Assembly (NCBI GenBank): GCA_026023565.1
Contig: JAPETS010000011.1
Location: forward strand, 310,001-374,000
DNA from: Cirrosporium novae-zelandiae
Taxonomy: Eukaryota
DNA length: 64,000 nt
Reading direction: 5' to 3'
The translations under genes were made by a program, and so were the position numbers. The notes under the pieces are model-generated. The model was given only the letters and a program-made list of their open reading frames with translations. It searched no databases and was not told the DNA's origin. This document shows, one piece after another, positions 21,097-56,289 of this stretch; position 1 is the first letter of the stretch, and every line of letters begins with the position of its first letter.

Positions 21097-22306
21097 TCAA
21101 ACAACCTCATTAACCGGCGCAACCGGCCTCCCCCGCAAAAACCACCCCCTAACATTCTTAAAGCACTCCCTCTCCGCCTTCCGAAACGCTCCATCCGTCA
21201 ACCCCCCCAAATGCGGCTGCAAAACACACCTCCCACTCCTCCTAAAATATTCATTAATCCTCGGCTCGCCATCAAAGACATCTAAACCGGCGCGGGTGAT
21301 TTTGCCGCTCTCGAGGGCGGCGATCAGGGCGGCCTCGTCGACGATGGGACCACGGGCCGTGTTGATTAGGTAGGTGTTTTGTTTCATGGTGGAGAATTCG
21401 GGGTAGCTGAGAAGGGATTTTGTGGTGGGGTTTAGGGGGCAGTGGATTGAGATTATGTCGGAGGTGGAGAGGAGAGTGGGGAGGGTGGAGCAGTAGGTGT
21501 AGGTGGATTCTTCGGAGGGGGAGAGGCGCGTGCGGTTGTGGTATTGGACTTTTAGGTTGAAGGCGCTGGCTTTGCGGGCTACGTGCTATTTTTTTTGTTA
21601 GTGGGGGGGTTGGTGGGGTGGATATGAGTGAATTGGTGGATATAGGTGCTCGAAGTAAATTACTGTAGAGGAGAGAGAGAGAGAAGAGCTTTACCTTTCC
21701 GATGTTTCCCATGCCAATGATGCCCAACGTCAGCCCCGAAGGATCTCTCGTCGGCACATGGTCTGCGCGCCACTTGCCCTCTCTTGCCGATTTCTCCGCA
21801 TTGGTTGCATCTTTCAAGACGGCAAGAAGCAGAAAAATAGTCATATCGGCCGTGGCCTCGGAGACGGCATTTCTGGTGTTACAGAACCAGATCTTATTCT
21901 TGGTCATCCAGTCGACATCAAACTCGTTGTAGCCTGCCGAGGCCGAGGCGATGATCGAGACTCCAGGAACGAGAGCGCCTAGTAGATTCTTGTCAAAGGG
22001 CTCGTAGGGGTGAGTTCCCATGCGGATTATGAGGGCGTCATATTTGCCGCGTGAAGCGATTTGGGCTGGGAGTTCGGTTTGGACTCGTTTTCGGTTTGGG
22101 GATTCTAGGACCTGTTTTTAGGGTTGAATGGGTTGAATGTGAGTTTTATCCATGTACTAGCTGAGGGGAACCTGGTGGGTAAGATGCTTCCAACTGACCT
22201 CGAAATCGAAATCATTTTTGAAATCTTCTAGGTAGTCTTCGCCGACATATGCTGGATATCCAATGGATAGGACTCGGGGCTTTTGAACTGCTTTACTAGG
22301 CGACAT
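21097..22306 (-). CDS. D-isomer-specific 2-hydroxyacid dehydrogenase (glyoxylate/hydroxypyruvate reductase-like)
   Basis: Exons 22306-22199, 22111-21695, 21585-21097 splice into an intact frame. Motifs SAGYNEFD, LGIIGMGNIG, YHNRTR, HCPL, INTARG, GLDVFDGEP, PHLGG. Confidence 0.92.
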
Positions 22307-22908
22307 GATTGATGACGATTCGATTTGAATCAATGACAACTAATCAAGAGAAAAAAAACACACAATTGAAGCGAGAAGAAAAAGAAGAAGGTCGAGAAAT
22401 AAAATAAAAGAAACAATTCCTTCAGCCTCGTTCGATTATTTGTGGTTTGTAAACAGCTTCATTCCGCACTACCGCAGGCGGGGATCTCTCAACCCCACAC
22501 AGCAGTTATCTTATAAAGCATGGTCGTAATCAAGCAGGGCAAGCTTTCACCTGTATCTTGTTCATTCCCAATGCTTATCTATCATCCAGGGGGGGGGGGG
22601 TTCTGAGGAGAGGCAGTTTTGCAAACTCGGGTAAGTTGTAGGTGAAGCCCCCACTGATCGGGAGAAAGTGACGGGAATCTTTCTGACTCGCTTAGTCTAG
22701 CGTCCTGTCACCACTTTGCTTATCGATATCTAATCATTGCAGTCCACCGTCATCATGACCATAACTATAACCACAACCATGGCATCGTCCAAAAAAAAAA
22801 AGTATATCCCTCTTCGCATAACCTTCCTCCTCCCTCTGAAACCTTACCATCTCCTCCTCCCTCTCCATAGCCAATAAATCAACCAACCAACCAACCAACC
22901 AACCAACC

Positions 22909-23855
22909 ATGACTTCCATCGATCCCCCCCTCCCCCCCCCTGGGCTTCATCGCCACAGAAATAAATTTCCACCGTCCGCCAGGCGACCCCTACAACGATC
23001 GAACATGGCCCTTCCCAATCATCAAGCGAGTCGCCAAGAACTCGCTGCTCGTGAACATCGTCACCGACGACACCTACCCAGAGGATTTTATCAATTCGGT
23101 TGTCGAGGCCGGCCAGGCCCTCGCGGATCAGGGATGCGTGGGGATTATCACTAGTTGCGGGTTTCTGGCTATGGCGCAACCTGAGTATGTGTCGATATTA
23201 TATCACTCCCCCTTTCCCAAGTCAAAAAAAAATAAGTAGAAAGAAATAGAAAAAAAAAGAAAAATGAATAGCTTCTCTCCCCCTTATTTTCTAACACCCT
23301 ACAATCCCTAGACTCTCCACCCGCCTGCCCATCCCCATCGCAACCTCCTCCCTTCTCCAAATCCCCACCATTATCCCCCTCCTCCCCCCAACCCAAACAA
23401 TCGGAATTCTAACCTTCGACGCCACCCGCCTGAACTCCAAACACCTCACCCAACTCAACATCCCCCCATCTCTCGCTTCCACAATCCCCATAATCGGATG
23501 TCCCTCCCCCGGTGCTCTCCGTAGCGTCATCCGCGACGGGAAACCCTACGTTCATGAGGTCTTGGAGGCGGAGCTGGTCGCGTGTGCGAAGGAGCTGGTG
23601 AAGCGGTTTCCGAATGTGGGCGCGATCGTGTTAGAGTGTACGCAGATGCCGCCGTTTGCGGAGGCGGTGGCGAGGGAGACCAGGTTGATGGTTTTTGATG
23701 TTGTGTCGTTGGGAAGGTGGTTTTATGGGGGATTGGTTAGGAGGGGTTTTGCGGAGTGGACGGAGAGGGAGGTTGCGGAGGCGGGGGTGGTGAGGGAGAG
23801 GGGGACGGGGGAGCGCGTGGAGAGTGCGGTTGGGGTGGGTGCTGGGGGGGTGTGA
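22909..23855 (+). CDS. Aspartate/glutamate/hydantoin racemase-family protein, with an apparent +1 frameshift in the poly-C tract near the start
   Basis: Main frame LGFIATEINFHRPPGDPYNDRTWPFP...GIITSCGFLAMAQ, intron 23185-23311, then ...IGILTFD...GAIVLECTQMPPF. The two Cys motifs (TSCGF, LECT) are typical of this family. ATG 22909 is out of frame by one C. Confidence 0.8.
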
Positions 23856-23867
23856 GAGGGTACTTAC

Positions 23868-25013
23868 GGGCAACGGTATAGAGGTTTGTTTTGACGGTGG
23901 AGTAACCCTGTGGGTGTTCTGTTAGTCGGGTGTGGTTTGATTGATTGGAAAATGTGAGACAAACCAGTCGCGTTACCATCCGGGGTAAGAAGTTGCCCAC
24001 AGATGCGGTGTCAACGCCATAAGAAAATGAAATGACTGACTAGACCATAACCCTCCAATCTGCAATTTTCTCTGTTCGCTGATCTCCTTTTCATTGCTAG
24101 TTAGCCACTTGCAAGTGCTAAGGTCTTGCGGGAGATGCCAATAGGCGAAGGAGGCTAGAAGGAGTGTGATGCTATCCTCGATGATCATAAGCTATTTCTA
24201 GCTGGCAACTTTGGGATCGTCGATTTGAAAGACGCCGAACGCGAGGAGGCCGTAGAGTGGCATCTGCGATTTGAACTGAGCCGAAGAAAATTGCCATGCG
24301 GAAGACGATCTCGTCGCGTTTGTAGAAGAGGGTTAGATGAAATGTAACTCCTATTAAACATTAGAAGAGGTATTTTATATGTCAAGGAATAAATAGATGT
24401 ACTGGCAAAGAATGTAGTTTCGAATGCCCTCATGATCAAACAACATACGACCAATCCCCCCCAATTGGTAACTGCGCATTGGAGCATGGTTATAGACCCC
24501 CTTTCGAGCATTGTTAGTATAGATGGGCGGACCGGATCACAAGAGACCCAAACCATCCCATCATCAATGTTAGAAGCATAACCTTGCTGCTGAATCTCTT
24601 CAATAGAAGATTACAAGGAATATCAAACAGACAAAATATGATCATAAAAAAGCACAAACGTAATTGAATATTCGTTTCCTTTCAGACCTAGATCTTCTTC
24701 CAGACCATCTGTTTTTTGCATTGCCAAGGTTAGAGCGATGAATTTAGTTGAAGCTGTTAATAAATATTCTATAGAATTGCATATGCTACCCTTTTTCTGG
24801 ACATTTGTGAATCAAATGGGTCCTTGCTGCGTTGAACAGGTACATTAGACTAAGCAAGGGGAGCAATCTAAAGTCTAGCTTCCTGGTGGTTGAGCGCTGA
24901 ATGACCTGGTCGAGAACTGGAATCACTTCATCTGTTTCGATATCATTGCCTTTGGACAAACTGGATGGAGACATATCTGTCTCCACTTTCGCTGGAAATT
25001 TCTCCTGGTCCAT
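23868..25013 (-). pseudogene. MFS transporter pseudogene, anion:cation symporter (Dal5/Tna1) family, with frameshifts, stops and no C-terminal part
   Basis: Fragments RKLDFRLLPLLSLMYLFNA, NLGNAKTDGLEEDLGLKGNEYS, LQCAVTNWGGLVVC, FYKRDEIVFRMAIFFG, LMIIEDSITLLLA, GYSTVKTNLYTVA lie in shifting frames with stops. Confidence 0.85.
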
Positions 25014-25639
25014 TATGATGGTTTAAATGGGAAAAAAAAAAGGCTTTTCAAAAACTATGTATGACTAGAAGAGCGTATCAAAGTAGCCTTAGACAAAAAC
25101 CTGAGAAATACCAATTGAGACATGATGAAGGTTGGTCAGGACCTTGAAATATAAAACTAGAGATGGGCGAATCTACTCTATTTCTCTCCTAAAGAAGAAA
25201 CGCCAACGCCAAGTGCTCTACCTCCATAGTAGCTTTTTGCCATGGATTCACAAGCTATAGTATATAGTGGATAGTAGATAGTAGATATTGATAAATCGGA
25301 GGAAAGCCGGATTGTTTTGATTTTGATAATTTGAGAGATGACTTACTCGAGTATAAAAATAGGAAACCGGAAGAAACCGACGAGAAATGTTTGGAGTGGA
25401 ACGGTTTATTCCGCACGGTGGAGATTGTCAGGGGTGGTTCCCCGACCTAGAAGAAGAAGCCTCACGTCGTTATCAACCCCAACCTAAATCTAATAGACGA
25501 TATTCCCTTGGACCTTAATACTCATATTAGTATCAGTACAAATCTGAAGATATGGTGGTTCCCATCTATCATGGCTTTGAGATATATGTTTATTTCTACT
25601 TTGAAATGGAGCCTCTTTTTTTCCCCACAAGGCTAAAAC

Positions 25640-27069
25640 AGGTGTGAATTACTATGAAAGGAGTTTATATTCGTATGCTGCAGGTTGTGATGCTGCTTCA
25701 GCCGGTAAGTTGACTTGCATCAAAATATAATGTAGAAAATGAACTAATATCGAAGGGGTGAGTAGATATTAATAAAACCGTTCAATCTGTTTATGGCACC
25801 CAAAAAGCTTACACGGAGCTCACACTAGAAGCAGTGCACTACTAGCTTGTTTAGAGTCATGAGCTTACTACTAGCAAATCCGTCCCTGAAAGGCTGACCA
25901 AAGATGATGTGTTGTTTTTAAATAATGGCAGTTGCCAAATGATTGACGATGTAATATTGTCTCCATTTGAGAGTCATTCGTTACAGACAATGAAGGAGAT
26001 CGGTATGGGCCATACCCAGATCCTTTTCAATGATCCCGAAAGCATGGTTCGAGCTTAACGATATGGATTCGGTTTTACAGTTGATCCACTCCAACGGTAG
26101 AGGAAGGGTAAGCAGTGTTTGGCATCATTAGACACGACAGGTGGAACTGTCTTTGCAGATAAGGCATGCCGCTTTGCCCTGTATAAGGCGAAGAAGCTAG
26201 ATGTCAAGTTCATTCTCAGCGGTGATGCGAGCACTTTTGACTCGCTGGTCTACGATACCTCTGATTCCAGAAAAGTGATAGGTGTCTGCACCAAAGACAA
26301 GAGTATCCACATTGTCGAGCTTGTCGTGGCTGCCTGTGGAGGGTGGACCCCAACTGTTGTTCCTAAGCTTGATAGCATATGCGAAACGACAGGTGGCTCA
26401 GTGACATTGATCAAGATTCCCCGCTCATCACCCTTCTATGATCGCTTTGTCCCCGAATATTTTCCTACATGGATGTTTAAGATGTGTGATGGAGGCTCGG
26501 GCGGTCGTTATGGTTTCCCTCGTGACAGAGATAGCTATTTAAAAATCGGATATCGTGGAACCAAGTATACGAACCCAAAAGTTCAAGCAGACGGTAAAGA
26601 ACATAGTACCTTAACCACCCGCTGGACGAAAGATGAAACTATCACCTAAGTACTATGGTAGGCTCTTGATGTCATTAAGAACTTTGTTACTGAATTTATC
26701 CCAGAGCTTGGTGCAGCAGGCATCAATATTGAAAAGACTTGGCTGTGCTGGTATTGTGATGCTTACGATAACAATTTCGTCATCGATCACGTGCCGGAAA
26801 AGGACGGCCTGATGGTTGCGACAGGCGGCAGTGGTCATGCATTCAAGCTTTTGCCAAATATTGGTAAGTGGATCGTGGGCGTAATTGAGGGCAATGGATT
26901 GAACAGAGAATTAATATAGAAGTGAAGGTGGAGGGAAATGGAAGCTGGAGAGGCGCCAGTGAATGCGTTAGGAGTGGGGAGTCATAGAATCAGGGCGTTG
27001 AAAAATGTGCAGCTGGCAAGTGATGAGGATTATATCCTGCCTCACTGTAGTGCCGAGGCGAAGTTGTAG
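25640..27069 (+). pseudogene. FAD-dependent amine oxidase pseudogene (sarcosine/pipecolate/fructosyl-amino acid oxidase family) with C-terminal PTS1-like AKL
   Basis: GCDAASA|DINK, AACGGWTP, LCWYCDAYDNNFVIDHVP, VATGGSGHAFKLLPNIG, ending AEAKL*. Seven in-frame stops at 25843, 26056, 26098, 26647, 26659, 26917 and 26923. The N-terminal GxGxxG motif could not be found. Start is approximate. Confidence 0.88.
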
Positions 27070-27199
27070 TGTTCTTTAGATAGTTTTCTGAAACATAAGA
27101 AAACAAAAATTTGTACATAATCCGACGCCAGGGTGATAGTAAAGAATTAAACGTCTAATTTTAAACATTATTCTGCCCTTTAAACGTATGGTGATTGTA

Positions 27200-29107
27200 A
27201 CAGACTTTAGTTGGGGTTTACCTATTTAGGTACCACGTATCCCCTTAACAACTCATCCAATAACATCTTTACACCCTTGCACATACCTACATTCGCCACG
27301 TCCTCGAACCAATTATTTATAGGTGTCGGTATCATTTATGGCTGGCCTTCTTGTATCAACGCTGGCATGCCCTGGTTAATCCAACTTTGTCGGGCGCCAT
27401 CACAGATCATGCTAATCGTCTTGGTCGATAGTGTCTCGAATATATCATGATACGGAGCAACTTTCTTCCAGCGATCACTAGGACCACTGTACATGTACAA
27501 GCTGTATAAGTTGTGCAGACATCATCGCTACGGACCATCGTGTGTACTGTGGGATATATCCAGAGACAGTGGAGGTAGGTCAGACGAGCGAGAAAGAGAA
27601 TGTGGAGCGATCGAGGTATAATTGACGGTATTGTAGGCAGATATCACGAGCTGCAGCTACACACTCGGTGAAAGCTGTGGAGGAGGTCCAGTTATTGATA
27701 CCATTATCGGAATTAAGACCTTGGTTTTGCCGGCTCGGCGGTATTAGAAAACATCTATAAAGTAGCAGGATTGAGTGCTCGTAGGCCAGCTGGAACAGCT
27801 CTTTAGAGCTGAAGATAGAAAGCTGCTGGTCAGATGGACAACTTAGCTGGCCTGGTATCTGTTTATGCTATTCATCTAGCTCTTTACGAGGCGATCTGCT
27901 GACTCACGATACATAGCCATATTGGAGTTCGGTTTACCGCTGATAGCCGAGTCGCTTGGGTAAAGCGCCTCCTAAATTTTTGACTAGATACGCCTTAGTC
28001 AAATTATATGTATAGCGCCTGACATCGTTGTCAGAGGTTCATTTGCAAATGAGCGAGGATCGCCATATATCCCAGCGGAACCGATACAATAATCATCAAT
28101 GTCCTTGTTCATAATACCAAAAGGTCGCCCTAACGTTATTGCTGCTGCACGGTCAAGATCGTATGATACCCAAAATAAACGTTTAGCGAGCTCAACCCTT
28201 TATGGGTCATTTCTAGAATGAAATCTGCGTGTACTTCGGTGATAGCTAAGCTCGATACATTGACGTAGAGCGTCGCCTTAATATCTCGAGTCGGTCGGTA
28301 GCATTAAGACAAAGCATGTCAATTTCAGAAGTCAAATCGCTAGCGCTGCTGCCATGATCTAGAGTATCAGCTATATCAATTTGTGCTGCGATTGGAAGCG
28401 TAGAATTTGTTTGGTTTCTAGCTGTGCTACTGCCACTAGTATCATCGTCGCTTAGGATATCTGGATTGTCGCTGATCTCTCTGACCGTGGTAGACACGGT
28501 ATACAAGGGTCTAGCATTGTTAGAAACTACTAGATGATCGTTACATACTTCTGGGTTCACATTTTGTAGCAAGCCCTCTAGCATTGCAACTTTTTTCTCT
28601 AGGGAACTTAGGTAATCGCGGGGCTGGTGCTGTTTGGTTATAGGATCCTCAACAAGATCTTCTATACATATTTAAGTATGAGCTTGCCGTAGTTGATAAG
28701 TATATTGGTTGAAAGTGAGTACTATCGACTCGACCAAAATGCAAACGAATATTTAGGGAAATGGACCGAATTTTGATTGCGAGACTTGCTCTGCTATTTG
28801 GAATATTGTGGAAAGCATCTAATCATACCTCTTCCTATCTCCAGACAGTTCCTGCATGATGGGCTTCGGCCGTCGCACTGAATGTGTTAGAGCAATATTC
28901 ACTTAATGGAAGAAAGTAGCCCCTACCTTCTGTTTCCTCTGTTTACATCCTATGCATGTTAATATTGTCCTATTGCCTGGTCTTCTCCTTGAGGTTGGTG
29001 GATAGGGAGGGCTTAGATCTGAATTTAGTATCTGAAGATACAATTAAATGGCCTGGTATGAATACGGCTTTAGTTTCAACTCTCGAAGTTGGTCGGTTGG
29101 AAGACAT
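27200..29107 (-). pseudogene. Zn(II)2Cys6 transcription factor pseudogene with a fungal-specific TF (middle homology) domain remnant
   Basis: Spliced cluster TCIGCKQRKQK|CDGRSPSCRNCLEIGR|EDLVEDP...PRDYLSSLEKKVAMLEGLL, lacking the sixth Cys. MHR fragments ALRQCIELSYHR and ELAKRLFWVSYDLDRAAAITLGRPFGI. Frameshifts and an apparent large internal deletion near 28290. The 3' end is approximate. Confidence 0.85.
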
Positions 29108-32100
29108 GTTCTGTACTAAAGAATAAATTAGGCCGTTGATGAGAGCGGGATTTTTCCGCTAAGACTAGAAAGGAATGCGGACTACTAGGGTTGACTTTGG
29201 AATGAATAATATTCTGCTCTCTTTTCGTTTCACAAGCTAAAACCAAGGTGCTTCTCTTATATTTAGGTATTCATACTATGTATAGACAAGCAAATGGTTC
29301 TCAGATAGCAATATATCTATATACAAGGTTTTTAGCATTTATAATATGCAAACGTTCATTATTCTAGCGGGAAGAATGTAGCCAGAGCTAGATTAATTAT
29401 AACCCAACTCCGAGGAAAAAGTTATTGAACGTTCAAGTAAAGTGATGGTAACCATAAGCATGTAACACAACCTTTTCGTTAGACTCGGGTTTTTATTCCA
29501 ATTCTGTGGGTTGAGGTATTTGATATTGTTAGGCAATAGACAGAAGTAAGCAGCCATGCCGAGAGTCTGAAAGTTAGAAGGGATTAGTCAAGTCGAGTAT
29601 CTACTTCACCGGGCTGAGTTTTGAGGAATGCGCCCTTAGGGCAAGAAGGCTCTTTGTGGGGATGGTAAGAACTGGTTGAATTTAAATTCGAGGGGTTCCT
29701 TTCCCTACACCGCTTCCGTTTGTATGGGTAAATTTTGATGTATTTCACACCACGTGGAGACAAGATGAACCGTAGAAAATCCCTAGGGATGCTGGTGCTG
29801 AAGAAAAGTAGAAGGTGTTTGTGAGAAGCATAGACACAAGAGTTTCATCCCTCTAGATGAGAAGGGTATCAGTTTCCATTGTAGGAGAACAAGATTATGA
29901 CTGACTCCCTCCAAAACCTACCTATACATCACATGTCCAAGGGTCCTCTAGGCTTCAGAATAATTCATCACCATCCTCAAGATCAAGAAAATATGAGTAA
30001 GTTCGTAGAAGGCATGGCATAGCGAATAAAGATGACTCATTCTTCCGAGATCTTTCTTCATGACGAATCAATACCCAGCCACTCCAGTCAGACTTCTTTC
30101 CTGTCGGTTTATTTCCACGTATTACCATTCCCGGACTAGAGATGGTAGAAACATAATCATTCAAACACAGGGCGTAGCAGCAATAGACAGCACACGTATT
30201 TATCATGACATGTCTTTTATATGTCAGATAGATGTAGAAGCGGTAGACGACCTCGTTTCCTTCAAGTGGCTTAACAGGTTAGGGGCGGAAGGTTTCCACG
30301 TTGATTGTGGATCGTATAAGCGGGTGAAGTGTATTACATCTTCATGCCCGACATATCTCGTCAGGGACAGAGCGCGGGTGTACTTTTAGCAATAAGATAG
30401 TTAGGCACAATTATCCGGTTTGAGTTATCGCTGTTGGGAATCACGGGGTTGTTATGATTGGTGATGTATAAGCCGGAGATAGCATGGAGAATTAATTAGA
30501 TAGAGTTTATACGGCCGACGTCATCCGCATCCTGGCCAAACAGACTTAAGTAAGGCGGTGGTATGTTGGTCCGATACGAAGATGGAATGATTTGGAATAA
30601 TACGGAAATTGCAAGAACATGCGAACGCGAATGCGAAGAGTAAGGATGAGTGAGAAAAGAGATGATGGTTTTATTTTTATCGTTATTTTTTTGTCAGTCA
30701 AAAAAAGTCCTTGTCAAAGGAAAATACACGGTAAATAAAATAATTAAGTATCTGATGGTTTGTAATTTTGGGTGTTGGCACTTGACCTGCAACTGAAAGG
30801 ATGAAAAATAATTGATATAACTACTAGTTGATATGTAAGAAACTATGATCGATGACTCCGTGCAACTTGGGTCTTAAATACTTTGGAATTATTGTTTAGT
30901 TTTAAAAGATACTGAACTGTCTATTGACTCGAATCAGGTCAGCTTCTTGTGCTTGAACGCCGAGATACTTCTGATGGTTTTGTGATTACCAAAGTATTGC
31001 GTATATTTTAGTACACCCGGTAACTGTGTACACATCAGATCATTACTCGATACGATTCTCTCCGACACAGTTGTAAAACAAAGCGAAAGCTAATGGGCAA
31101 TTTCTCCATTAGGAAGCTCACAATCAGAGGATCAAAGTAAAATATATACCGTAGGATATTAATATTTGCCTCCGCTGATCGTCGTGAATTCATTTTTGTA
31201 TTTTGTAAAGGATAACATTTATGATACAACTGCCGACCGCCGGTATTAGGGTTTATGAGCCAAGAAGCTCGTGCAAAGTGTCCAATATCACCCAACGGTG
31301 GTGATATCGAACGGAATGCTGCATCAGTGTCTGCATCAATGTCACAAAATACACCTTAACGGTTTGAAATATTTTACTGATGATAAGATAATCAGTCCGA
31401 CAACTATCCCGAAAGGTCCTCGCAACGGGTACACAAAAGGAAGCATAATGGAACTAAGCATAAATTGCTGGGAAGCTTGGTCCGTTTTTTCGGGATTATT
31501 TATGGAGTAGCTGAATATATGAGATTGAATAGAAATCCAAACGAAAGATATAGGAGCCGGATGGTTTGAATGCATTGGACAACGTGGCAGAACAGCTCAG
31601 ACATCTTAGACAGCTGCATCGTTGGAACTTGGACAGCTTACCACCCACAACTCGACGGCTGGAACGTTCGGGTCACAGACTTTTAAAAAATGTTTTTTTT
31701 TTCTGTCAAAGAGCCATGTTCTAGGAGTGCCTGAGGCCCCCGGTTATCGCCGGGAGGCGTAGCCCTATTTGCTGCCCTAAGATAACTAGCCGTTGCTAAG
31801 AATGTTACCCTGAAATTTCATGGATGCTGCCGTTGGGACGAGAACAAGACGATCAAAAGCCACAAGTCTGGGTTTGTTTGAAATTTTTTCCGTTCTTGGG
31901 AGCCTGGAGCGTTGGACTGCTGCAATGAGACCCGGCTATATGCGCAGTAATCAATTATCTATGTATTGGTGAGGGTTCCGCTTCCTCCCGCCAATTGTGC
32001 AGTAGCACTGCACAGCCATGTCGATCAGAATTATAGTAGGAACGAAAATATAGAATTACCAACTAATGGAAAAAAGGTGCTGACCGATTAACCCATCAAT

Positions 32101-34573
32101 CGAATAGCATCCCGACTTTATCGCCGCGGAAGTTCAGGGACCACGAAATAGTCAGCTTGAATGGAGTTGTCCCCAGGAACACAGCCAGGGATCTTCAGCC
32201 TCTTCCGCGTGAGGCTCCAATTTTCTTTTGGAAGGAGATGGCGTAGATCTGTGGCTTGACCCAGCTGTTATCAAGATTTAAGGTCATTCAGAACTTAACC
32301 TCAGGCACAATGATTGAGGATAGCCTATAGCCTAGCACTCCTAGTAAACATGTCTTCTTCTGATGTTAGACTATTGGACTAGATACTGCTTCTCCCATCG
32401 GCCTCTCCGAATTTCAAATCATATCCATCAGCTGATCTGAAGAAGATCAGTCAGAAAGAAGGTGCGCCACTTCCCGGAAGTAAAAAGAATTGATTATTTT
32501 ATACTGACTCAGTAAATGAATGACATGGTTTAAAAGCGCCGAACTGGTATTTTCTAAGTGCCGACAACTTTGATCAGCTTGTTAAAGAAGTCTGAATAGC
32601 TACGGGAAGAGACTAAGAGACTACAATATTTTGTTGAGAAGGGACCCAAGGTACTGCTAACAAACCATATTCGGAAATCTCAAATAAGCAATGTCAACTA
32701 TCAATCAACAGGGAAACCATCCCCAATAAGATAAGTTGTAACCCCAGATGATCGGCTCATAAGCCGAGTATGTGCCACAACTGTAATTCAGGCTTCGGAT
32801 CTTGAGACTACCGAGTGTGGCGTGTGGCTTGCTCATGGGATGGTTTCCTCTATCAAGGAAATGGGGGGATGCCCTAGTTACTGTAGTAGTTTAGTAGGCA
32901 GCTGAATAGCCACGAGTCTTTTGTAACAAAGAGTCAAAAAGCAACGGTCAACGCAACACCAGGTGAGGCGCAGCTGTCAAAAGAACGGTTGGGAGTGGCT
33001 GTTTGTGTCCCATGGACCATGATTTCTGGGTTCTTGGTATAACTTTTTTCGGTTGTTGCAGATAAAATAGTTGATTGCTAAGTTGAAGTTGGTGTGAAGA
33101 ATGCCAGCAAAGCATCGCTTGGGAGCCGAGTTAAGAGTTCAAAAGTCTTAGAGTCTAAAAATGGCATACTTAGTGTAGACCCTAGTTAAGGGAAAAAAGA
33201 TTCGTGGGGGAGTTCTAGGTAGATCTGGCCCTGATTGATGCATGGTTCTAGTGTTAAAAAACTCTTTTTTGGCTGGTTACGTTGAAAAAAAAACGAAAAA
33301 AAAACAAGCTTGGTTGTGTGTGGGTACTGTAATTTTTTTCTTCGGTAGGGTTGTAGAATGGGAGAGTAGACAAAAGTGAAAGTGGAAGGGGGGGGGGGGG
33401 AAACCGGAAGTAGACGGGAGATGCATGGAAGAAAAAATCGAAGGTTTGGAAGCTGTATCTATACCGAATTAGGAAGGAATATTCATATTCAAAGGACCAT
33501 TATCTCTATTTTCTAGCCATATCCAATAATATCCAGTTGCATTCCCTCAATTGAGTGTCATTGTGCGTGGGCCAAAGCCCCAAGAAGGTCAAGTCATGTC
33601 CAATTTAGGTCTAGTTCAATAGTAACAATACAAGGACAACGAAAGGGCCAGTACAAGCTCAGTGTAGAAGCCAATGCAAGCCTAATGCAAGCCCATTGCA
33701 GGCCTGCGTTAAAGCCCTGCATAACTAGGCGCAACCATTGATTGGCTGTGGGTCTCACAGGGCTTTTGTGGATGGATGGACAAGACACTTCCTGGATACT
33801 TCGATATGTCATGAACTACGTCATCTTTTTTGTCCAGGACCAGGAAAACTTGATAAAGCTTTCCAACAAAGAAATAATAATAAAGACACTTGCCCTGCGA
33901 GAATTGCCATCGTCATGATTCACTCTGACTATTATTACCCATTCCGATCACACATCCAAATTTTCTTCATTTGCTGACTTGAAGAACAACAACCATTACC
34001 AACAACCAACAACAAACGAAAGAACAAGCATTCCGTCACCCTACAATCATATGTCGGTCGGATCATTCCACCACCTTCCAGAAGTATCAACAAAAAAAGC
34101 CTCCTAGGTATTACCTCGAACGTACCGCACGTAATAAATCTGTATTATTAGTTCGGTCGTTCCAAGGATCATTCTTCAACATTACTCAGTTTTCATCCAA
34201 ATCCAAGGCAGTCATTCAGTCATTTACTTTACTTTTACTCGCACGACTCGGAATCCTAGGCCGAAGTCCGAAGATTTTACCGACACTTTCTAGGGCAACA
34301 ACAAAGTTTGGGTGGTTGACATATATTCTATCCCGGCGAGTACCTTTGACCACCATAAATCGATCGACTCCCGGGTATTTGAATCGAGCATTTGCCACAC
34401 TGCTCGCTTTCACTCATCTTCTAACCCTTCAACCAAACAAAAGCCAACAAACCAAACAAAAAGGTCCTTTTCATTAAAGTCAAATCAAAATCCCATTTCA
34501 AATAGGTCAGCCCGTATTGCCTTGTCTAGCGCATAGACCCGGCGACTCGGATTCCCACTTCTCCCTGACATCC

Positions 34574-52580: not shown

Positions 52581-53567
52581 TTACAGCTTAGCCTCCACAT
52601 CCATCAACTCCTTCGTCAAATCTTTAACCTCCTTGACCTTCTCAGCTGACAGCCTCTTCAGCGGCTGACGCGGGTAACCCCCATACCCGAAATAACTTTG
52701 AAGCGCGCTCTTGGTGCCCGGGATAGCGGTCCTGGTGAGGACCCAATCACCTTTACTCAGGATCTTTTGGAGCTCGATGGCCTCGTCTTTTTTGCCTTCG
52801 CGCCAGAGCGTCCATACTTTGACGCAGGTTTTGGGGGCCACGTTGGCGCCGCCGGCGATGATGCCTGAGCCGCCGGAGACGAGTGTTTGGGCGGTGAAGT
52901 CGGCCATTCCGCCAAAGGCCATGTAGCCCTTTGAGGAGCCCTTCACGTCGTTGCAGGTGAGGGCTTTGGTGGCGAGGGCCACGCGGGTCAGTTTTCCTGT
53001 GTTGGCGCAGGTGAATTTCGTGCCGACGATGTTGGGGTGTTGGGCTAGTTTTATAAGGAGGTCTGAGTCTAGGTCGATTCCTGAGACGGCGCCGGGGTAG
53101 TTGTAGATTATGATGGGCAATGGGGATTTGTCGGCTACGGTCGTGTAGTAGTTTGTTATTGCTTCTTCGTCCATGGCGTAGCGGTAGTAGGAGGGCGAGA
53201 CCAGGAGGACGTATTCTCCGCCTACGGCAGCGGATTCCTTGATTAGCGCGATGGTGCCTCGGATTGATTGCTCCGAGGCGCCGACGATGACAGGGACGTC
53301 GCTGAAGCCTGCGGAGTCTAGGGCCGACCGCGTTTCTTTTGTCACGGTGGCGCGTTCCTCGTGGGTTAGGTGTACGGCTTCGCCGTTGGAGCCCATGGTT
53401 ACTAGACCTGCGAGACCCGCTTTGGCTAGTCGGATGGCATGTGCGCGGATCGTGGGGATGTCGAGATCTTCGGTTACTGGGTCGAAGAAGGTCATTGTTG
53501 GGGCGTAGATGCCCGGTCGGAGGGGCGTTAGGGGTTTCGACCTGCTAGGGACGCTGGTTGATGTCAT
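52581..53567 (-). CDS. gaaC: 2-keto-3-deoxy-L-galactonate aldolase (DHDPS/NAL family) of D-galacturonate catabolism
   Basis: GIYAPTMTFF, GLVTMGSNGEA, IIIYNYPGAVSGIDL, and Schiff-base Lys in IVGTKFTC. Head-to-head with a GaaA-type reductase, the known gaaA/gaaC arrangement. Confidence 0.9.
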   Translation of the reverse strand: MTSTSVPSRSKPLTPLRPGIYAPTMTFFDPVTEDLDIPTIRAHAIRLAKAGLAGLVTMGSNGEAVHLTHEERATVTKETRSALDSAGFSDVPVIVGASEQSIRGTIALIKESAAVGGEYVLLVSPSYYRYAMDEEAITNYYTTVADKSPLPIIIYNYPGAVSGIDLDSDLLIKLAQHPNIVGTKFTCANTGKLTRVALATKALTCNDVKGSSKGYMAFGGMADFTAQTLVSGGSGIIAGGANVAPKTCVKVWTLWREGKKDEAIELQKILSKGDWVLTRTAIPGTKSALQSYFGYGGYPRQPLKRLSAEKVKEVKDLTKELMDVEAKL

Positions 53568-53992
53568 TGTGAAAGGGTTTTTAGGGGATCAATGTGAGAA
53601 TTTGAAAGAATAGGGGTTTATTTGGTAGGCCAAGGGGAACTTTTTTGAATATACGAGATTGGATATAAAAAAATAGATAGAGAGTTGAGGAAAGGAGAAA
53701 GAATGTCGCAGTGACTTGTCGGCTCCTCTTTAAGGAAATTGACAACGAGATCTCTATTAGCTAGGTACCCTAGGTATGTACAGTATAGTGATACAGTGAT
53801 ACTTGACTACAGCTATTAGCGGATATGTTGGAGATAGAGCGGTACCTAAAACAGTCAATTGCATCTGAAGCTTCTCGTGATGTCGGATGCTTTCAGGGCC
53901 CGGCTTGGCTTTTTTCCCATGTTCAGGGTCTTCTGAGGGAGGTTATTTCTTGGAAAGGTTTAAAGAAGTTATCCAGGAGCGGAAGGATTTGA

Positions 53993-54001
53993 TCCACCAA
54001 T
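53993..54001. promoter_or_regulatory. GARE (galacturonic acid responsive element) TCCACCAAT in the gaaC-gaaA bidirectional promoter
   Basis: Exact match to the TCCNCCAAT consensus described for GaaR-regulated pectin genes. Confidence 0.75.
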
Positions 54002-54858
54002 TGAGGTTGGGTGATGCGCCGTGGGGGTTTTTTTGTTGATGTTTGATGGGATCATGGGGGGGGTGGGTGAATGGTGGGTGGATGATGGTGGATAGGTGGA
54101 TGAAGGGCATGGAGGGGCAGAAGAGCTGTCCGATAACCGACGACATGCCAGATTGCGGGGGCCTTTAGTCTAATAAATAGCCTTTTTACGGCCTCGCTTT
54201 TTCCGCTTCTTCATTCTTCCGTTGGTTTTTAGGAAATGTCCGACAAGATTCCATTTACTATCCAGTACATCTATCACGTATATGTTGAAACAAGAATAAG
54301 AATGAAAAAAAGAATGAAAAATGAAAAATGAAAAAAGAAGAAAAAAGAAGAAAAGAGAAGACGAAAAGGAATGAATGTGACAGTGTATACTTATCGGCAA
54401 TTGAAGTCAAGTCTATAATAGTCATGGATAGATAGGTGGGGGCAACATGATGATTCAAATAACTTTAACAAGTCCCTTCAAAGTTCTTCAATTCGTTTGA
54501 AATTAACCCGGCCACCACGTCCATCCCCACCACTCCCACCACTCCCACCACGGAATATAACCCACATTCACCTTACTAATAATACTCCATGAGAAACTAA
54601 AAGCCCTTTGGGGGTTCGCCCAGTATCCATGTTGTCGGACCACTCTGCTCCCACCTATGACTGGATGCTCTATCATGAACTGCCACAATGAACCTCCACG
54701 CTTCATCGAACAATTTCACCGTTGTAGCTCAATGTTTCAAGACATTGACTTTTTATTTGTCTTCTCTTCCCTTTCTTAAACTGTTTGGTCTCAATTGCAA
54801 TCCTCATTGACCGTGAATCCCTCCAGAAACATCTCAAGTAATCAGTAAATAGTTCATC

Positions 54859-56289
54859 ATGGCACCTCTCAATGTTTTAATGGTAAGTTAGCTTCTCTAA
54901 TGACATGTTCGAGTGCTAAAAATGCTTCAATAGGTTGGTACTGGCGAGTACACGACCGGATATGTTGCAGGGAAAGCCTCTACATCAGACAAGAGCGTCG
55001 GTGTTGTTGCGCTTACAATGTTCGACCTTCGGCGACGAGGCAAGGTTGGAAATCTGAGCATGGTTGGTATCGCCGGAGATATCTATGCTGGAATTCGTAT
55101 GCACATCCTCCACAATTATTAACCTCTAATTAATCCATGTCCACTTGACAGGCGAGCACTTTAAGAAAAATATCTCCGAGGTCTACAACAACCTTGATGT
55201 CTCCTTCACGTCTTATCCTGAGGTGGGCGTCACAAACTACGAAGCCTACAAGACAGCCATTGATGCACTATCTCCCGGCGATGCTATTACAATCTTTACC
55301 CCCGACCCAACCCACTATCCCATTGCCCTCTATGCAGTCCAACACAAGATTCACGTCCTGGTAACCAAGCCCGCGACTCAGCTTCTGGAACACCACCTGA
55401 GCCTCCTTGAAGAAGCTAAGAAGAACGGCGTATTCGTATACGTCGAGCACCACAAACGATTTGACCCAACCTACGCCGATGCTCGTGCTAAAGCTAAGAA
55501 TCTTGGAGACTTCAACTACTTCTATAGTTATATGAGCCAACCGAAGAGCCAGCTCGACACATTCAAAGCATGGGCTGGAAAGGCCAGTGATATCTCATAC
55601 TACCTCAATTCACACCACGTCGATGTCAACGTAAGTATGGTACCGGACTACAAACCCATAAAAGTGACAGCATCCGGCTCGAAAGGAGTAGCTGTCGATC
55701 TTGGATGCGATCCCAAAACCGAGGACACCATTACATTACTCGTAACCTGGCAGAAAAAATCCGACCCAAAGAAGATCGCTACTGGTGTATACACTTCTAG
55801 CTGGACTGCTCCACAGAATGCTGGAGTGCATTCACAACAAAACTTCCACTGTAAGCATGCAATCCCCATCTTTTCCATTCATAATTCTACTATCCTTTTC
55901 TTGTTCCACATTGCCCTCGCCACTAACAACCACAAGACCTTGCTGCAAAGGGCGAAGTCCGCATCGACCAAGCCAAGCGCGGTTACACCATCGCCGACGA
56001 CAACAAGATGGCTTGGTCTAACCCATTCTACATGAAATACTCTCCCGACGAATCCGGCGACTTCAATGGCCAATCCGGATACGGATACGTTTCCTTTGAA
56101 AAGTTTGTTGATGCCGTAACAGCGGTAAATGCAAAGAAGGTGACCGTGGATGAGTTGGATAAGAGAGGGTTGCCCACACTGAAGAACACGATTGCGACGG
56201 GTGCAATCCTGAATGCTGGACGCATTAGTCTGGATGAGGGGAGAAGCGTGGAGATTATTGAAAAGGATGGCGTATGGTCGCTTAAATAA
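54859..56289 (+). CDS. gaaA: D-galacturonate reductase (Gfo/Idh/MocA family)
   Basis: Exons 54859-54882, 54934-55096, 55152-55850, 55937-56289. [19 protein letters not shown]...[54 protein letters not shown]. Confidence 0.92.

Follow-up and report, generated by a model that had tools for sequence, protein, structure and literature searches.

The stretch of DNA analyzed here, which we call the window, comprises 64,000 nucleotides of contig JAPETS010000011.1 (positions 310,001 to 374,000, forward strand; assembly GCA_026023565.1) of Cirrosporium novae-zelandiae, a fungus placed by NCBI in Xylobotryomycetes. It contains a group of five gene bodies (Table 1). A D-2-hydroxyacid dehydrogenase gene (DH) on the minus strand is divergent from a racemase-family gene (RAC), of the PRK07475 family, on the plus strand; a transporter gene of the major facilitator superfamily (MFS) on the minus strand is divergent from an FAD-dependent amine oxidase gene on the plus strand; and a Zn2Cys6 regulator gene (TF) follows on the minus strand. 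A first-pass annotation of the window had these five genes right in position and orientation, had recognized that the oxidase frame ends in AKL, and had set the cluster among housekeeping genes: indeed, histones H4/H3 lie at 18-20 kb on one flank, with ARO1, a kinase, Sen15, and an F-box/WD40 gene as more distant neighbors. Its reading of the group as a five-gene catabolic cluster stands for gene content but not for functional state, with three of the five genes broken and a fourth, RAC, doubtful. The window cluster is the decaying relic of a cluster that many other fungi keep intact.

Table 1. Cluster features in the window (position 1 is the first letter of the 64,000)
Feature	Position	Strand	Remarks
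DH (glyoxylate reductase / D-mandelate dehydrogenase-like), intact, 337 aa	21097..22306	-	Pfam PF00389/PF02826
DH exons	22306-22199, 22111-21695, 21585-21097	-	Spliced model identical to P0292 = M1834_000860
Possible decayed regulator site, DH<>RAC promoter	22658..22671	+	2 mismatches to TCGG-N6-CCGA
RAC, PRK07475 family	22909..23855	+	Profile and fold searches, conserved columns
Dal5/anion:cation-symporter-type MFS pseudogene	23869..25013	-	Stops, C-terminal third deleted
Two CGG-N6-CCG (PPR1-type) sites, MFS<>oxidase promoter	25368 and 25402 (25368..25413)	.	
MSOX/PIPOX/FAOX-family FAD amine oxidase pseudogene, ends AKL	25620..27069	+	8 in-frame stops
PPR1-like Zn2Cys6 regulator (TF) pseudogene	27222..29107	-	At least 6 stops, 2 frameshifts, deletion near 28295

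The oxidase relic consists of a remnant of exon 1 that runs up to ~25703 and of a second exon starting at ~25762, with in-frame stops at 25843, 25852, 26056, 26098, 26647, 26659, 26917, and 26923. Over its long exon it shares 50% identity with intact fungal homologs of ~490 aa, in which the GxGxxG, covalent-flavin Cys, and GGSGH motifs are present; in the window copy, the N-terminal GxGxxG region could not be detected by tblastn. Conserved columns are changed at 38 of 177 positions, versus 10 of 177 in the intact ortholog of a metagenomic fungal locus (L002, described below) and 27 of 176 in a distant intact paralog on contig C57 of the same genome. Block by block, the MFS relic can be aligned to a C57 MFS (L101) that extends beyond the point where the relic breaks off. 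At least three stops fall within the aligned blocks, and the relic terminates 14 bp from the RAC stop with its last third missing. Around the break (23840-23910), the truncated frame reads into a GTAAGT donor-like sequence ~10 bp from the RAC stop; a single deletion may therefore have removed both the 3' end of the MFS gene and the intergenic DNA. In the TF relic, the internal deletion corresponds to ~685 bp of L002, and the sixth cysteine of the zinc cluster reads Asp. Contig C57 itself carries, at ~264100-268200 (L101:7165-8860, L102:132-1663), an apparently intact paralogous MFS and oxidase pair in the same divergent layout; the pair lacks a CGG-N6-CCG site, and neither DH, RAC, nor TF adjoins it. 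This pair may have made the window copies of the two genes dispensable.

DH is the only plainly intact gene of the window cluster: 8 of 130 conserved columns are changed, and the protein is 100% identical to the named record M1834_000860. RAC has changes at 5 of 62 conserved columns and matches M1834_000861 at 100%, and M1834_000864 is a partial model of the oxidase. Between the RAC ATG at 22909 and the remainder of the gene the reading frame shifts by one base, at a run of nine C (22932-22940); an upstream exon that would restore the frame is ruled out by a TGA at 22910-22912, which blocks that frame. The C terminus of the window RAC lacks the SKL present in its nearest relative (Clonostachys).

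We considered two trivial or special causes for the lesions. A Logan contig of run X1 is identical to the window over 22941-29300, so the lesions are not peculiar to this assembly and assembly error is not supported as the cause of the stops there, with the limit that X1 may be the source data of this DNA and is not independent sampling. The stretch 22868-22940, including the C run, lay outside this comparison, so that the RAC frameshift may reflect an error of the assembly or a mutation of recent date. Repeat-induced point mutation was also rejected: its composite index is about 0 or lower across the cluster, and the 17 C>T/G>A changes (contexts CA 6, CC 5, CG 3, CT 3) lean that way without CpA bias. 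The decay is therefore of the ordinary kind.

Intact clusters and shared promoter sites in other fungi

The claim of the first-pass annotation that the cluster is conserved and co-regulated, with intact copies elsewhere, is borne out by synteny and by common promoter sites, and the orthologs do lie together in unrelated genomes. Neighboring pairs were picked by eye, from accessions and locus tags, among the matches listed, and yield no rate. Oxidase and DH are adjacent in at least seven species (Cladophialophora bantiana, Rhinocladiella mackenziei, Exophiala viscosa, Elasticomyces elasticus, Aspergillus heterothallicus, A. karnatakaensis, and Periconia macrospinosa) and five loci apart in Boeremia. 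In four further species the contigs that carry the two genes are of equal length, which makes them candidates for linkage. RAC and oxidase are spaced by 3-4 accessions or locus tags in at least eight Colletotrichum species (C. phormii, C. orchidophilum, C. salicis, C. simmondsii, C. abscissum, C. godetiae, C. chrysophilum, and C. gloeosporioides 23), and in C. scovillei by 13-18 accessions in three assemblies and by more in a fourth. RAC adjoins DH in Neocucurbitaria and Clonostachys solani; the two genes are two apart in Clonostachys byssicola and five apart in Thozetella. In some gene models the neighbors are merged, DH being joined to the oxidase in A. undulatus and to the aldolase in A. 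spectabilis.

Three of the 80 metagenome loci fetched with the RAC profile are fungal by gene content. L002 reads aldolaseII-TF-oxidase-DH<>RAC (<> marks divergent genes), with an intact oxidase of 499 aa; L043 reads class III aminotransferase-D-amino acid oxidase (DAO, ending in SKL)-aldolaseII-TF-DH<>RAC-MFS; and L003, which is yeast-like, reads TF<>RAC-Dal5-type MFS-second MFS. Two metagenomic fungal loci thus contain four of the five gene types. As a unit, the five-gene set holds in part: the wider core is oxidase plus DH (with TF and a TqaM-like enzyme of the class II aldolase fold, which the window lacks and which had been overlooked), but RAC is accessory to it, since in A. heterothallicus and A. 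karnatakaensis RAC lies on a different contig from the oxidase-DH pair.

The promoters of these loci share sites, as expected of a fungal catabolic regulon. In 11 regions (5359 bp) taken from the window, L002, L043, and L003, the motif CGG-N6-CCG, the site of PPR1, occurs 14 times against 0.81 expected from dinucleotide shuffles (maximum 4 in 1000), and none of the other spacers between 0 and 14 gives more than three occurrences of CGG-Nx-CCG (0-3 each). The motif is found in 9 of the 11 regions, or in 9 of 14 if three site-less regions are kept that were dropped when the set was fixed after a first look (two TF-only upstream regions and the C57 promoter; four regions were also trimmed). GATAAG, the site for nitrogen control of the AreA/Gln3 type, was observed 15 times versus 3.1 expected (maximum 10 in 500 shuffles). 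Two sites are left in the MFS<>oxidase promoter of the window; over 14 bases, the first has a single mismatch to the site found upstream of the L002 oxidase, which is intact. The window DH<>RAC promoter holds no intact CGG-N6-CCG site, and its counterparts in L002 and L043 carry one each. The intact TF of L003, moreover, has PPR1 as its best PDB match (1pyi, E 7.5e-9). With CGG-N6-CCG and GATAAG together in its promoters, the cluster looks like a nitrogen-source (nitrogen-use) regulon, an assignment that we consider likely.

Several points nonetheless tell against a conserved regulon. The choice of promoter regions was made in the manner just described, and it raises the proportion of regions with a site. 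No locus examined holds all five window gene types together intact, and the MFS genes of the different loci correspond by a weak match in L043 only. In E. oligosperma, oxidase and DH share a contig but are 153 loci apart, and the separation of RAC in the two Aspergillus species bears in the same direction.

Two further parts of the window drew our attention. The ~5 kb beyond the dead TF (29200-34000) contain no open reading frame (ORF) of at least 120 aa and no Pfam family in a six-frame read-through (29.2-34 kb); they may be DNA that decayed earlier or else a long promoter belonging to a C2H2 gene at 34.5-36.9 kb. At 52584-56032, a gene of the dihydrodipicolinate synthase (DHDPS) family (52584-53588, minus strand) is divergent from a Gfo/Idh/MocA oxidoreductase gene (55130-56032, plus strand), a possible small sugar-acid catabolic pair.

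Enzyme families of the cluster

The placement of the oxidase in the MSOX/FAOX family and in the peroxisome, both made in the first-pass annotation, agrees with what we found among its homologs. The R-x-C-W-Y covalent-flavin motif is present in 119/119, and a strict peroxisomal targeting signal type 1 ends 71 of the 119, so that they are mostly targeted; for DHs the figure is 1 of 120 and for RACs 2 of 30. The best PDB matches of the intact L002 oxidase are members of the MSOX/PIPOX/fructosyl-amine oxidase family (4wct, 3djd, 6gg2 FmpA, and 1el5; E 3e-32 to 1e-12). Intact cluster oxidases differ from these, however, in that the solved members align only in local patches, and they fall under the curated NCBIfam cutoffs (soxA_mon, 89-93 bits versus 480; MTOX, 107-120 versus 257). 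With partial PDB matches and scores below cutoff, assignment to the characterized FAOX, sarcosine oxidases, or pipecolate oxidases failed, and the cluster oxidase appears to be an uncharacterized subfamily of ~490 aa within MSOX/PIPOX/FAOX.

For RAC, the earlier name of racemase holds as a fold label, but PRK07475 is a family without demonstrated activity whose closest characterized relative is a lyase. PRK07475, a "hypothetical protein" in NCBIfam, is assigned to P0003 with a score of 240 against a cutoff of 231; P0022, at 214, is below it. The predicted model of RAC (predicted local distance difference test, pLDDT, 89) has the Asp/Glu/hydantoin racemase fold, its best match being allantoin racemase (Z 16.1, root mean square deviation 3.4, 206 aligned, 12% identity); fold searches found no solved relative above 19% identity. 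The cysteines C85 and C200 are invariant in 29/29 fungal RAC sequences. RAC thus combines the fold of the superfamily of Asp/Glu/hydantoin racemases with both of its catalytic cysteines, which lie in x-CGF and ECTQ.

According to Shemi et al. (PMC10349084), PRK07475 is the racemase subfamily closest to the algal dimethylsulfoniopropionate (DMSP) lyase Alma1, its bacterial homologs lack DMSP lyase activity, and DMSP lyases are defined by D/NCGF plus ECTE/Q motifs. The window protein has the second motif, as ECTQ, but not the first: together with nearly all fungal homologs it reads SCGF, neither DCGF nor NCGF. Moreover, of the SCGF-type sequences 132 of 137 have an Arg ahead of the GD motif, against 2 of 18 of the DCGF type; this Arg suggests a second anion, and the contrast favors an anionic substrate over a sulfonium. 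On these motifs, DMSP lyase was rejected as the specific function of RAC. No Alma1 structure was among the fold-search matches of RAC, and kinship is not excluded thereby. The proteins P0015 and P0421, of the fungal clade, have the algal-lyase DCGF motif and keep the Arg. P0457, in the sister group of the ascomycete clade, is a eukaryote-like model of 759 aa with a class I/II aminotransferase and a PRK07475 domain; it may be two adjacent genes merged.

Fungal RACs form one clade (FastTree 0.998, 44 rows); in a quick tree it comprises two groups, one of Pezizomycotina (SH-aLRT 97) and one of yeasts (100), with homologs in Lachancea, Zygotorulaspora, and Pichia. The window RAC groups with Clonostachys and L043 (support 90, quick tree), against taxonomy. 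As to the horizontal transfer that the first-pass annotation proposed to test, especially for the racemase, the analysis covered this quick tree and the FastTree tree, both unrooted. The pattern fits a bacterial origin followed by fungus-to-fungus transfer, which one study reports for the racemase superfamily in general (PMC5169069). In a 2025 paper, OpaE is called the only well-characterized fungal member (PMC12661438). Our literature search found no characterized member of PRK07475; only the Alma1 paper surfaced, in two versions. An overlap with the galactarate genes of A. niger was discarded, as what is named there is a mandelate racemase, which is a different family (PMC6384228).

Intact clusters add a sixth gene, of the class II aldolase fold, represented by PF00596 genes in L002 and L043. 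The aldolase domain of A. spectabilis P0364 (the model fused to the cluster DH) has TqaM as its best PDB match (9m09, E 2.6e-58), is also close to NovR, and retains the GH, N, HxH, and NHG motifs of these enzymes, which cover the three-His metal site and the GH/N substrate motifs. The cluster protein is accordingly best described as a putative TqaM/NovR-like iron decarboxylase. TqaM, an enzyme with non-heme iron, carries out oxidative decarboxylation and accepts only 2R-hydroxy acids (PMC13351049), CloR and NovR perform the same reaction on a mandelate-type intermediate (PMC13111500), and the known members act in biosynthesis (PMC13351049, PMC13111500). Because a D-specific DH makes 2R-hydroxy acids, DH and the aldolase-fold enzyme would together shorten a 2-oxo acid by one carbon; the bacterial equivalent of the pair would be a thiamine pyrophosphate (TPP) enzyme plus aldehyde dehydrogenase (ALDH). 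In the window, tblastn and the Pfam read-through found no such gene or relic, and tblastn found no relic of an aldolase, DAO, or aminotransferase (best E 0.24-0.69).

In bacteria, we examined the surroundings of RAC in 80 GTDB loci, 31 of them from Bradyrhizobium. Genes nearby encode a DadA-like FAD dehydrogenase (51 loci), a TPP enzyme (41), a 2-hydroxyacid DH (30), a polar amino acid binding protein (30), RidA (19), and an aspartate-aminotransferase-like protein (18). The first three are found in 18, 10, and 12, respectively, of the 36 non-Bradyrhizobium loci of at least 10 kb, and in 26, 9, and 9 of 77 metagenome loci, many of which are short. Across Bradyrhizobium (L053, L057, L068, and the 31 loci, among L120-L186), the order TPP(PRK08199)-DadA-like-RAC is fixed, and upstream genes for ABC transporters, 2-hydroxyacid DH, RidA, and aminotransferase have been lost stepwise; L053 and L057 have a second RAC copy.

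Ten plasmid regions, one of them unannotated, were also inspected. On plasmids of Agrobacterium, Bosea, Paracoccus, and Sinorhizobium, RAC is followed by a FAD-subunit/2Fe-2S/FAD-subunit trio, presumably of the opine-oxidase type, with a TPP enzyme, ALDH, UbiD/X, or RidA nearby; a plasmid region of R. pomeroyi has the TPP partner alone. An operon common to S. meliloti pSymA (L086/L109) and P. denitrificans plasmid 1 (L087) has an ABC transporter, a TPP enzyme, and ALDH divergent from a HutC-like regulator, UbiD, UbiX, the PRK07475 enzyme, and the FAD/2Fe-2S/FAD trio. That UbiD accompanies an imino-acid dehydrogenase may point to an N-heterocyclic carboxylate as substrate. We found no characterization of this operon, and the SMa22xx tags, which are presumed for the S. 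meliloti genes, gave no substrate clue: the papers on these tags give generic labels only (10.1101/741314, PMC12542648). A distant PRK07475-like gene on a Planktothrix agardhii plasmid (L090, 609-17815) stands in an unrelated context, an apparent biosynthetic operon with glycine amidinotransferase, desaturases, O-methyltransferase, and P450 genes.

A candidate pathway and its alternatives

We suggest that the cluster is a conserved ascomycete nitrogen-scavenging regulon that acts on an anionic N-substituted (imino-diacid) substrate and is decaying in Cirrosporium, a proposal whose chances, taken whole, we put slightly below even. It starts from what was observed of gene content, lesions, synteny, common promoter motifs, and family membership; the reactions, their order, and the substrate class would be as follows. 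In intact copies, a PPR1-like activator, through its CGG-N6-CCG sites, and GATA-factor nitrogen control would turn the genes on. What the Dal5-type symporter would import is an amino acid that is anionic and N-substituted; imino-diacids are the likeliest candidates, be they "opine-like" (N-carboxymethyl or N-carboxyalkyl) or their cyclic counterparts. Substrates of the N-carboxyalkyl kind had also been named in the first-pass annotation. The two-cysteine PRK07475 enzyme may then invert one alpha-carbon, making both stereoisomers usable, and the peroxisomal covalent-FAD oxidase would split the molecule at its C-N bond into an amino acid that can be used and a 2-oxo acid, with release of H2O2. 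The D-specific DH would reduce the 2-oxo acid to an (R)-2-hydroxy acid, from which the TqaM/NovR-like iron enzyme, where present, could remove C1 as CO2 in an optional step; D-specificity fits such a step because TqaM takes only 2R-hydroxy acids. The bacterial counterpart would use a DadA-like or three-subunit opine-oxidase-type dehydrogenase and then a TPP enzyme, with or without aldehyde dehydrogenase. In Cirrosporium, the importer, oxidase, and regulator would have decayed, with DH and RAC probably longer under selection.

An imino-diacid is favored because one and the same position in the pathway is occupied by oxidases with opposite regiochemistry: those of the MSOX type attack the N-substituent, and DAO, DadA, and opine oxidases attack C-alpha. 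From an imino-diacid, both would give an amino acid plus a 2-oxo acid. On the other side, glyoxylate, pyruvate, and 2-oxoglutarate have ordinary disposal routes, and a dedicated pair of DH and TqaM-like enzyme would therefore indicate a 2-oxo acid of a less common kind. Several paralogs of the aldolase-fold family lie unlinked in the Cirrosporium genome, so that for the cluster member a TqaM-like activity is putative. Finally, none of the 80 bacterial loci carries a fungal-type oxidase or aldolase fold, and bacteria and fungi may therefore share no substrate. All of this weakens the imino-diacid proposal. A reading that joins the two kingdoms, in which one undescribed route of amino-acid breakdown was built twice from different parts around PRK07475, is tentative and, as a whole, rather unlikely. 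Its fungal parts would be the MSOX-type oxidase, the D-2-hydroxyacid dehydrogenase, and the TqaM-like iron decarboxylase, its proteobacterial parts a DadA- or opine-oxidase-type dehydrogenase and a TPP enzyme, and its substrate a common but unrecognized plant or soil imino-diacid.

The substrate might instead be a primary, non-proteinogenic acidic amino acid that is racemized and deaminated at C-alpha, its 2-oxo acid then being shortened by one carbon, in bacteria by a TPP enzyme, with ALDH optional, and in fungi by DH plus the TqaM-like enzyme, as in routes of racemase, D-amino acid dehydrogenase, and 2-oxo-acid decarboxylase. Locus L043, with its DAO and aminotransferase in place of the MSOX-type oxidase, would suit this, as would the aspartate-aminotransferase-like enzyme, RidA, and polar amino acid ABC transporter of the bacterial operons. 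However, the dominant fungal partner is of the MSOX/FAOX family, whose characterized members, as far as is known, require a secondary amine, and we regard a primary amino acid as unlikely.

A hydroxylated cyclic imino acid (4-hydroxyproline or 5-hydroxypipecolate) is quite unlikely. Oxidation of the PIPOX type would yield 4-hydroxyglutamate or 5-hydroxy-2-aminoadipate, 2-hydroxy acids suited to TqaM, and a TqaM-like decarboxylation would lead from these to Asp or Glu. Bacterial hydroxyproline routes consist of an epimerase with a single-subunit or three-subunit FAD dehydrogenase, and both dehydrogenase types were seen beside RAC. Yet no aldehyde dehydrogenase is among the listed ORFs of L002, L003, and L043, genes of the DHDPS family occur in 1 of 80 bacterial loci, and the conserved Arg suggests a second carboxylate.

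RAC could also be an Alma1-like C-N or C-S lyase that acts on an N- or S-substituted succinate or propionate, removing the alpha-proton and eliminating a beta leaving group, with the oxidase acting on the released amine. The kinship of PRK07475 with the algal lyases speaks for this, as does the fungal RAC profile, which retrieves DCGF/ECTE-type proteins at E ~1e-63 to 1e-52; the automatic Atlas name of the nearest, mostly ascomycete, cluster is "DMSP lyase," a lead only. Against it are the lack of DMSP lyase activity in the bacterial homologs (PMC10349084), the contrast between fungal SCGF with Arg and algal DCGF without, and the retention of both cysteines, as an epimerase requires, so that a lyase seems decidedly improbable. 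That the cluster tailors or detoxifies a secondary metabolite, and is no nutrient pathway, is somewhat more improbable still: near relatives are tailoring enzymes (TqaM, NovR, FmpA, and OpaE, the last after PMC12661438), the distribution is patchy, and the gene tree departs from taxonomy, but the ORFs listed for the three ~14 kb fungal loci include no backbone synthase gene, GATAAG is enriched in the promoters, and the transporters of fungi and bacteria are of the uptake type.

If the reading that joins fungi and bacteria is true, PRK07475, the family closest to the algal DMSP lyase, would gain its first function, possibly a C-N/C-S lyase reaction, and TqaM-type carbon excision its first catabolic role; a function for PRK07475 would also bear on the origin of the climate-relevant Alma1 DMSP lyase. 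The cluster points to a nitrogen source, not found named in our searches, whose genes plant-associated fungi, yeasts, and rhizobia-type bacteria retain. A candidate regulator, its putative site, and intact model clusters are now in hand. The window relic serves as a pointer to those intact, testable clusters and as a record of cluster decay, in which importer, oxidase, and regulator go first, then the promoter site, and the two enzymes last longer.

Comparison with known catabolic systems

As a fungal catabolic cluster, the system is of a known kind. The first-pass annotation knew of no characterized fungal cluster with this combination, and we likewise found nothing relevant to the gene combination or the family name, and no description of the pathway, in the main text of open PMC/bioRxiv papers.

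Among bacterial systems, the nearest are the routes that use D-hydroxyproline dehydrogenase, opine oxidase, and glyphosate/iminodiacetate oxidase. In these, as in the PRK07475 loci, an epimerase-like gene stands beside a DadA-like or three-subunit FAD dehydrogenase, along with an amino acid, TRAP, or TTT transporter. The epimerase fold, however, differs from PRK07475, and the PRK07475 loci have a TPP enzyme, a 2-hydroxyacid DH, and RidA rather than a deaminase of the DHDPS type.

Among fungal systems, the comparison is with the nitrogen-utilization clusters prn of A. nidulans and DAL of yeast and with the PPR1/UaY regulators, which likewise have a pathway-specific Zn2Cys6 gene, a permease, and enzymes in divergent pairs. 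None of these clusters is known to have the present enzyme set, and the window copy differs from them in being pseudogenized. In its PPR1-like TF and in its CGG-N6-CCG and GATAAG sites, the present cluster matches that type.

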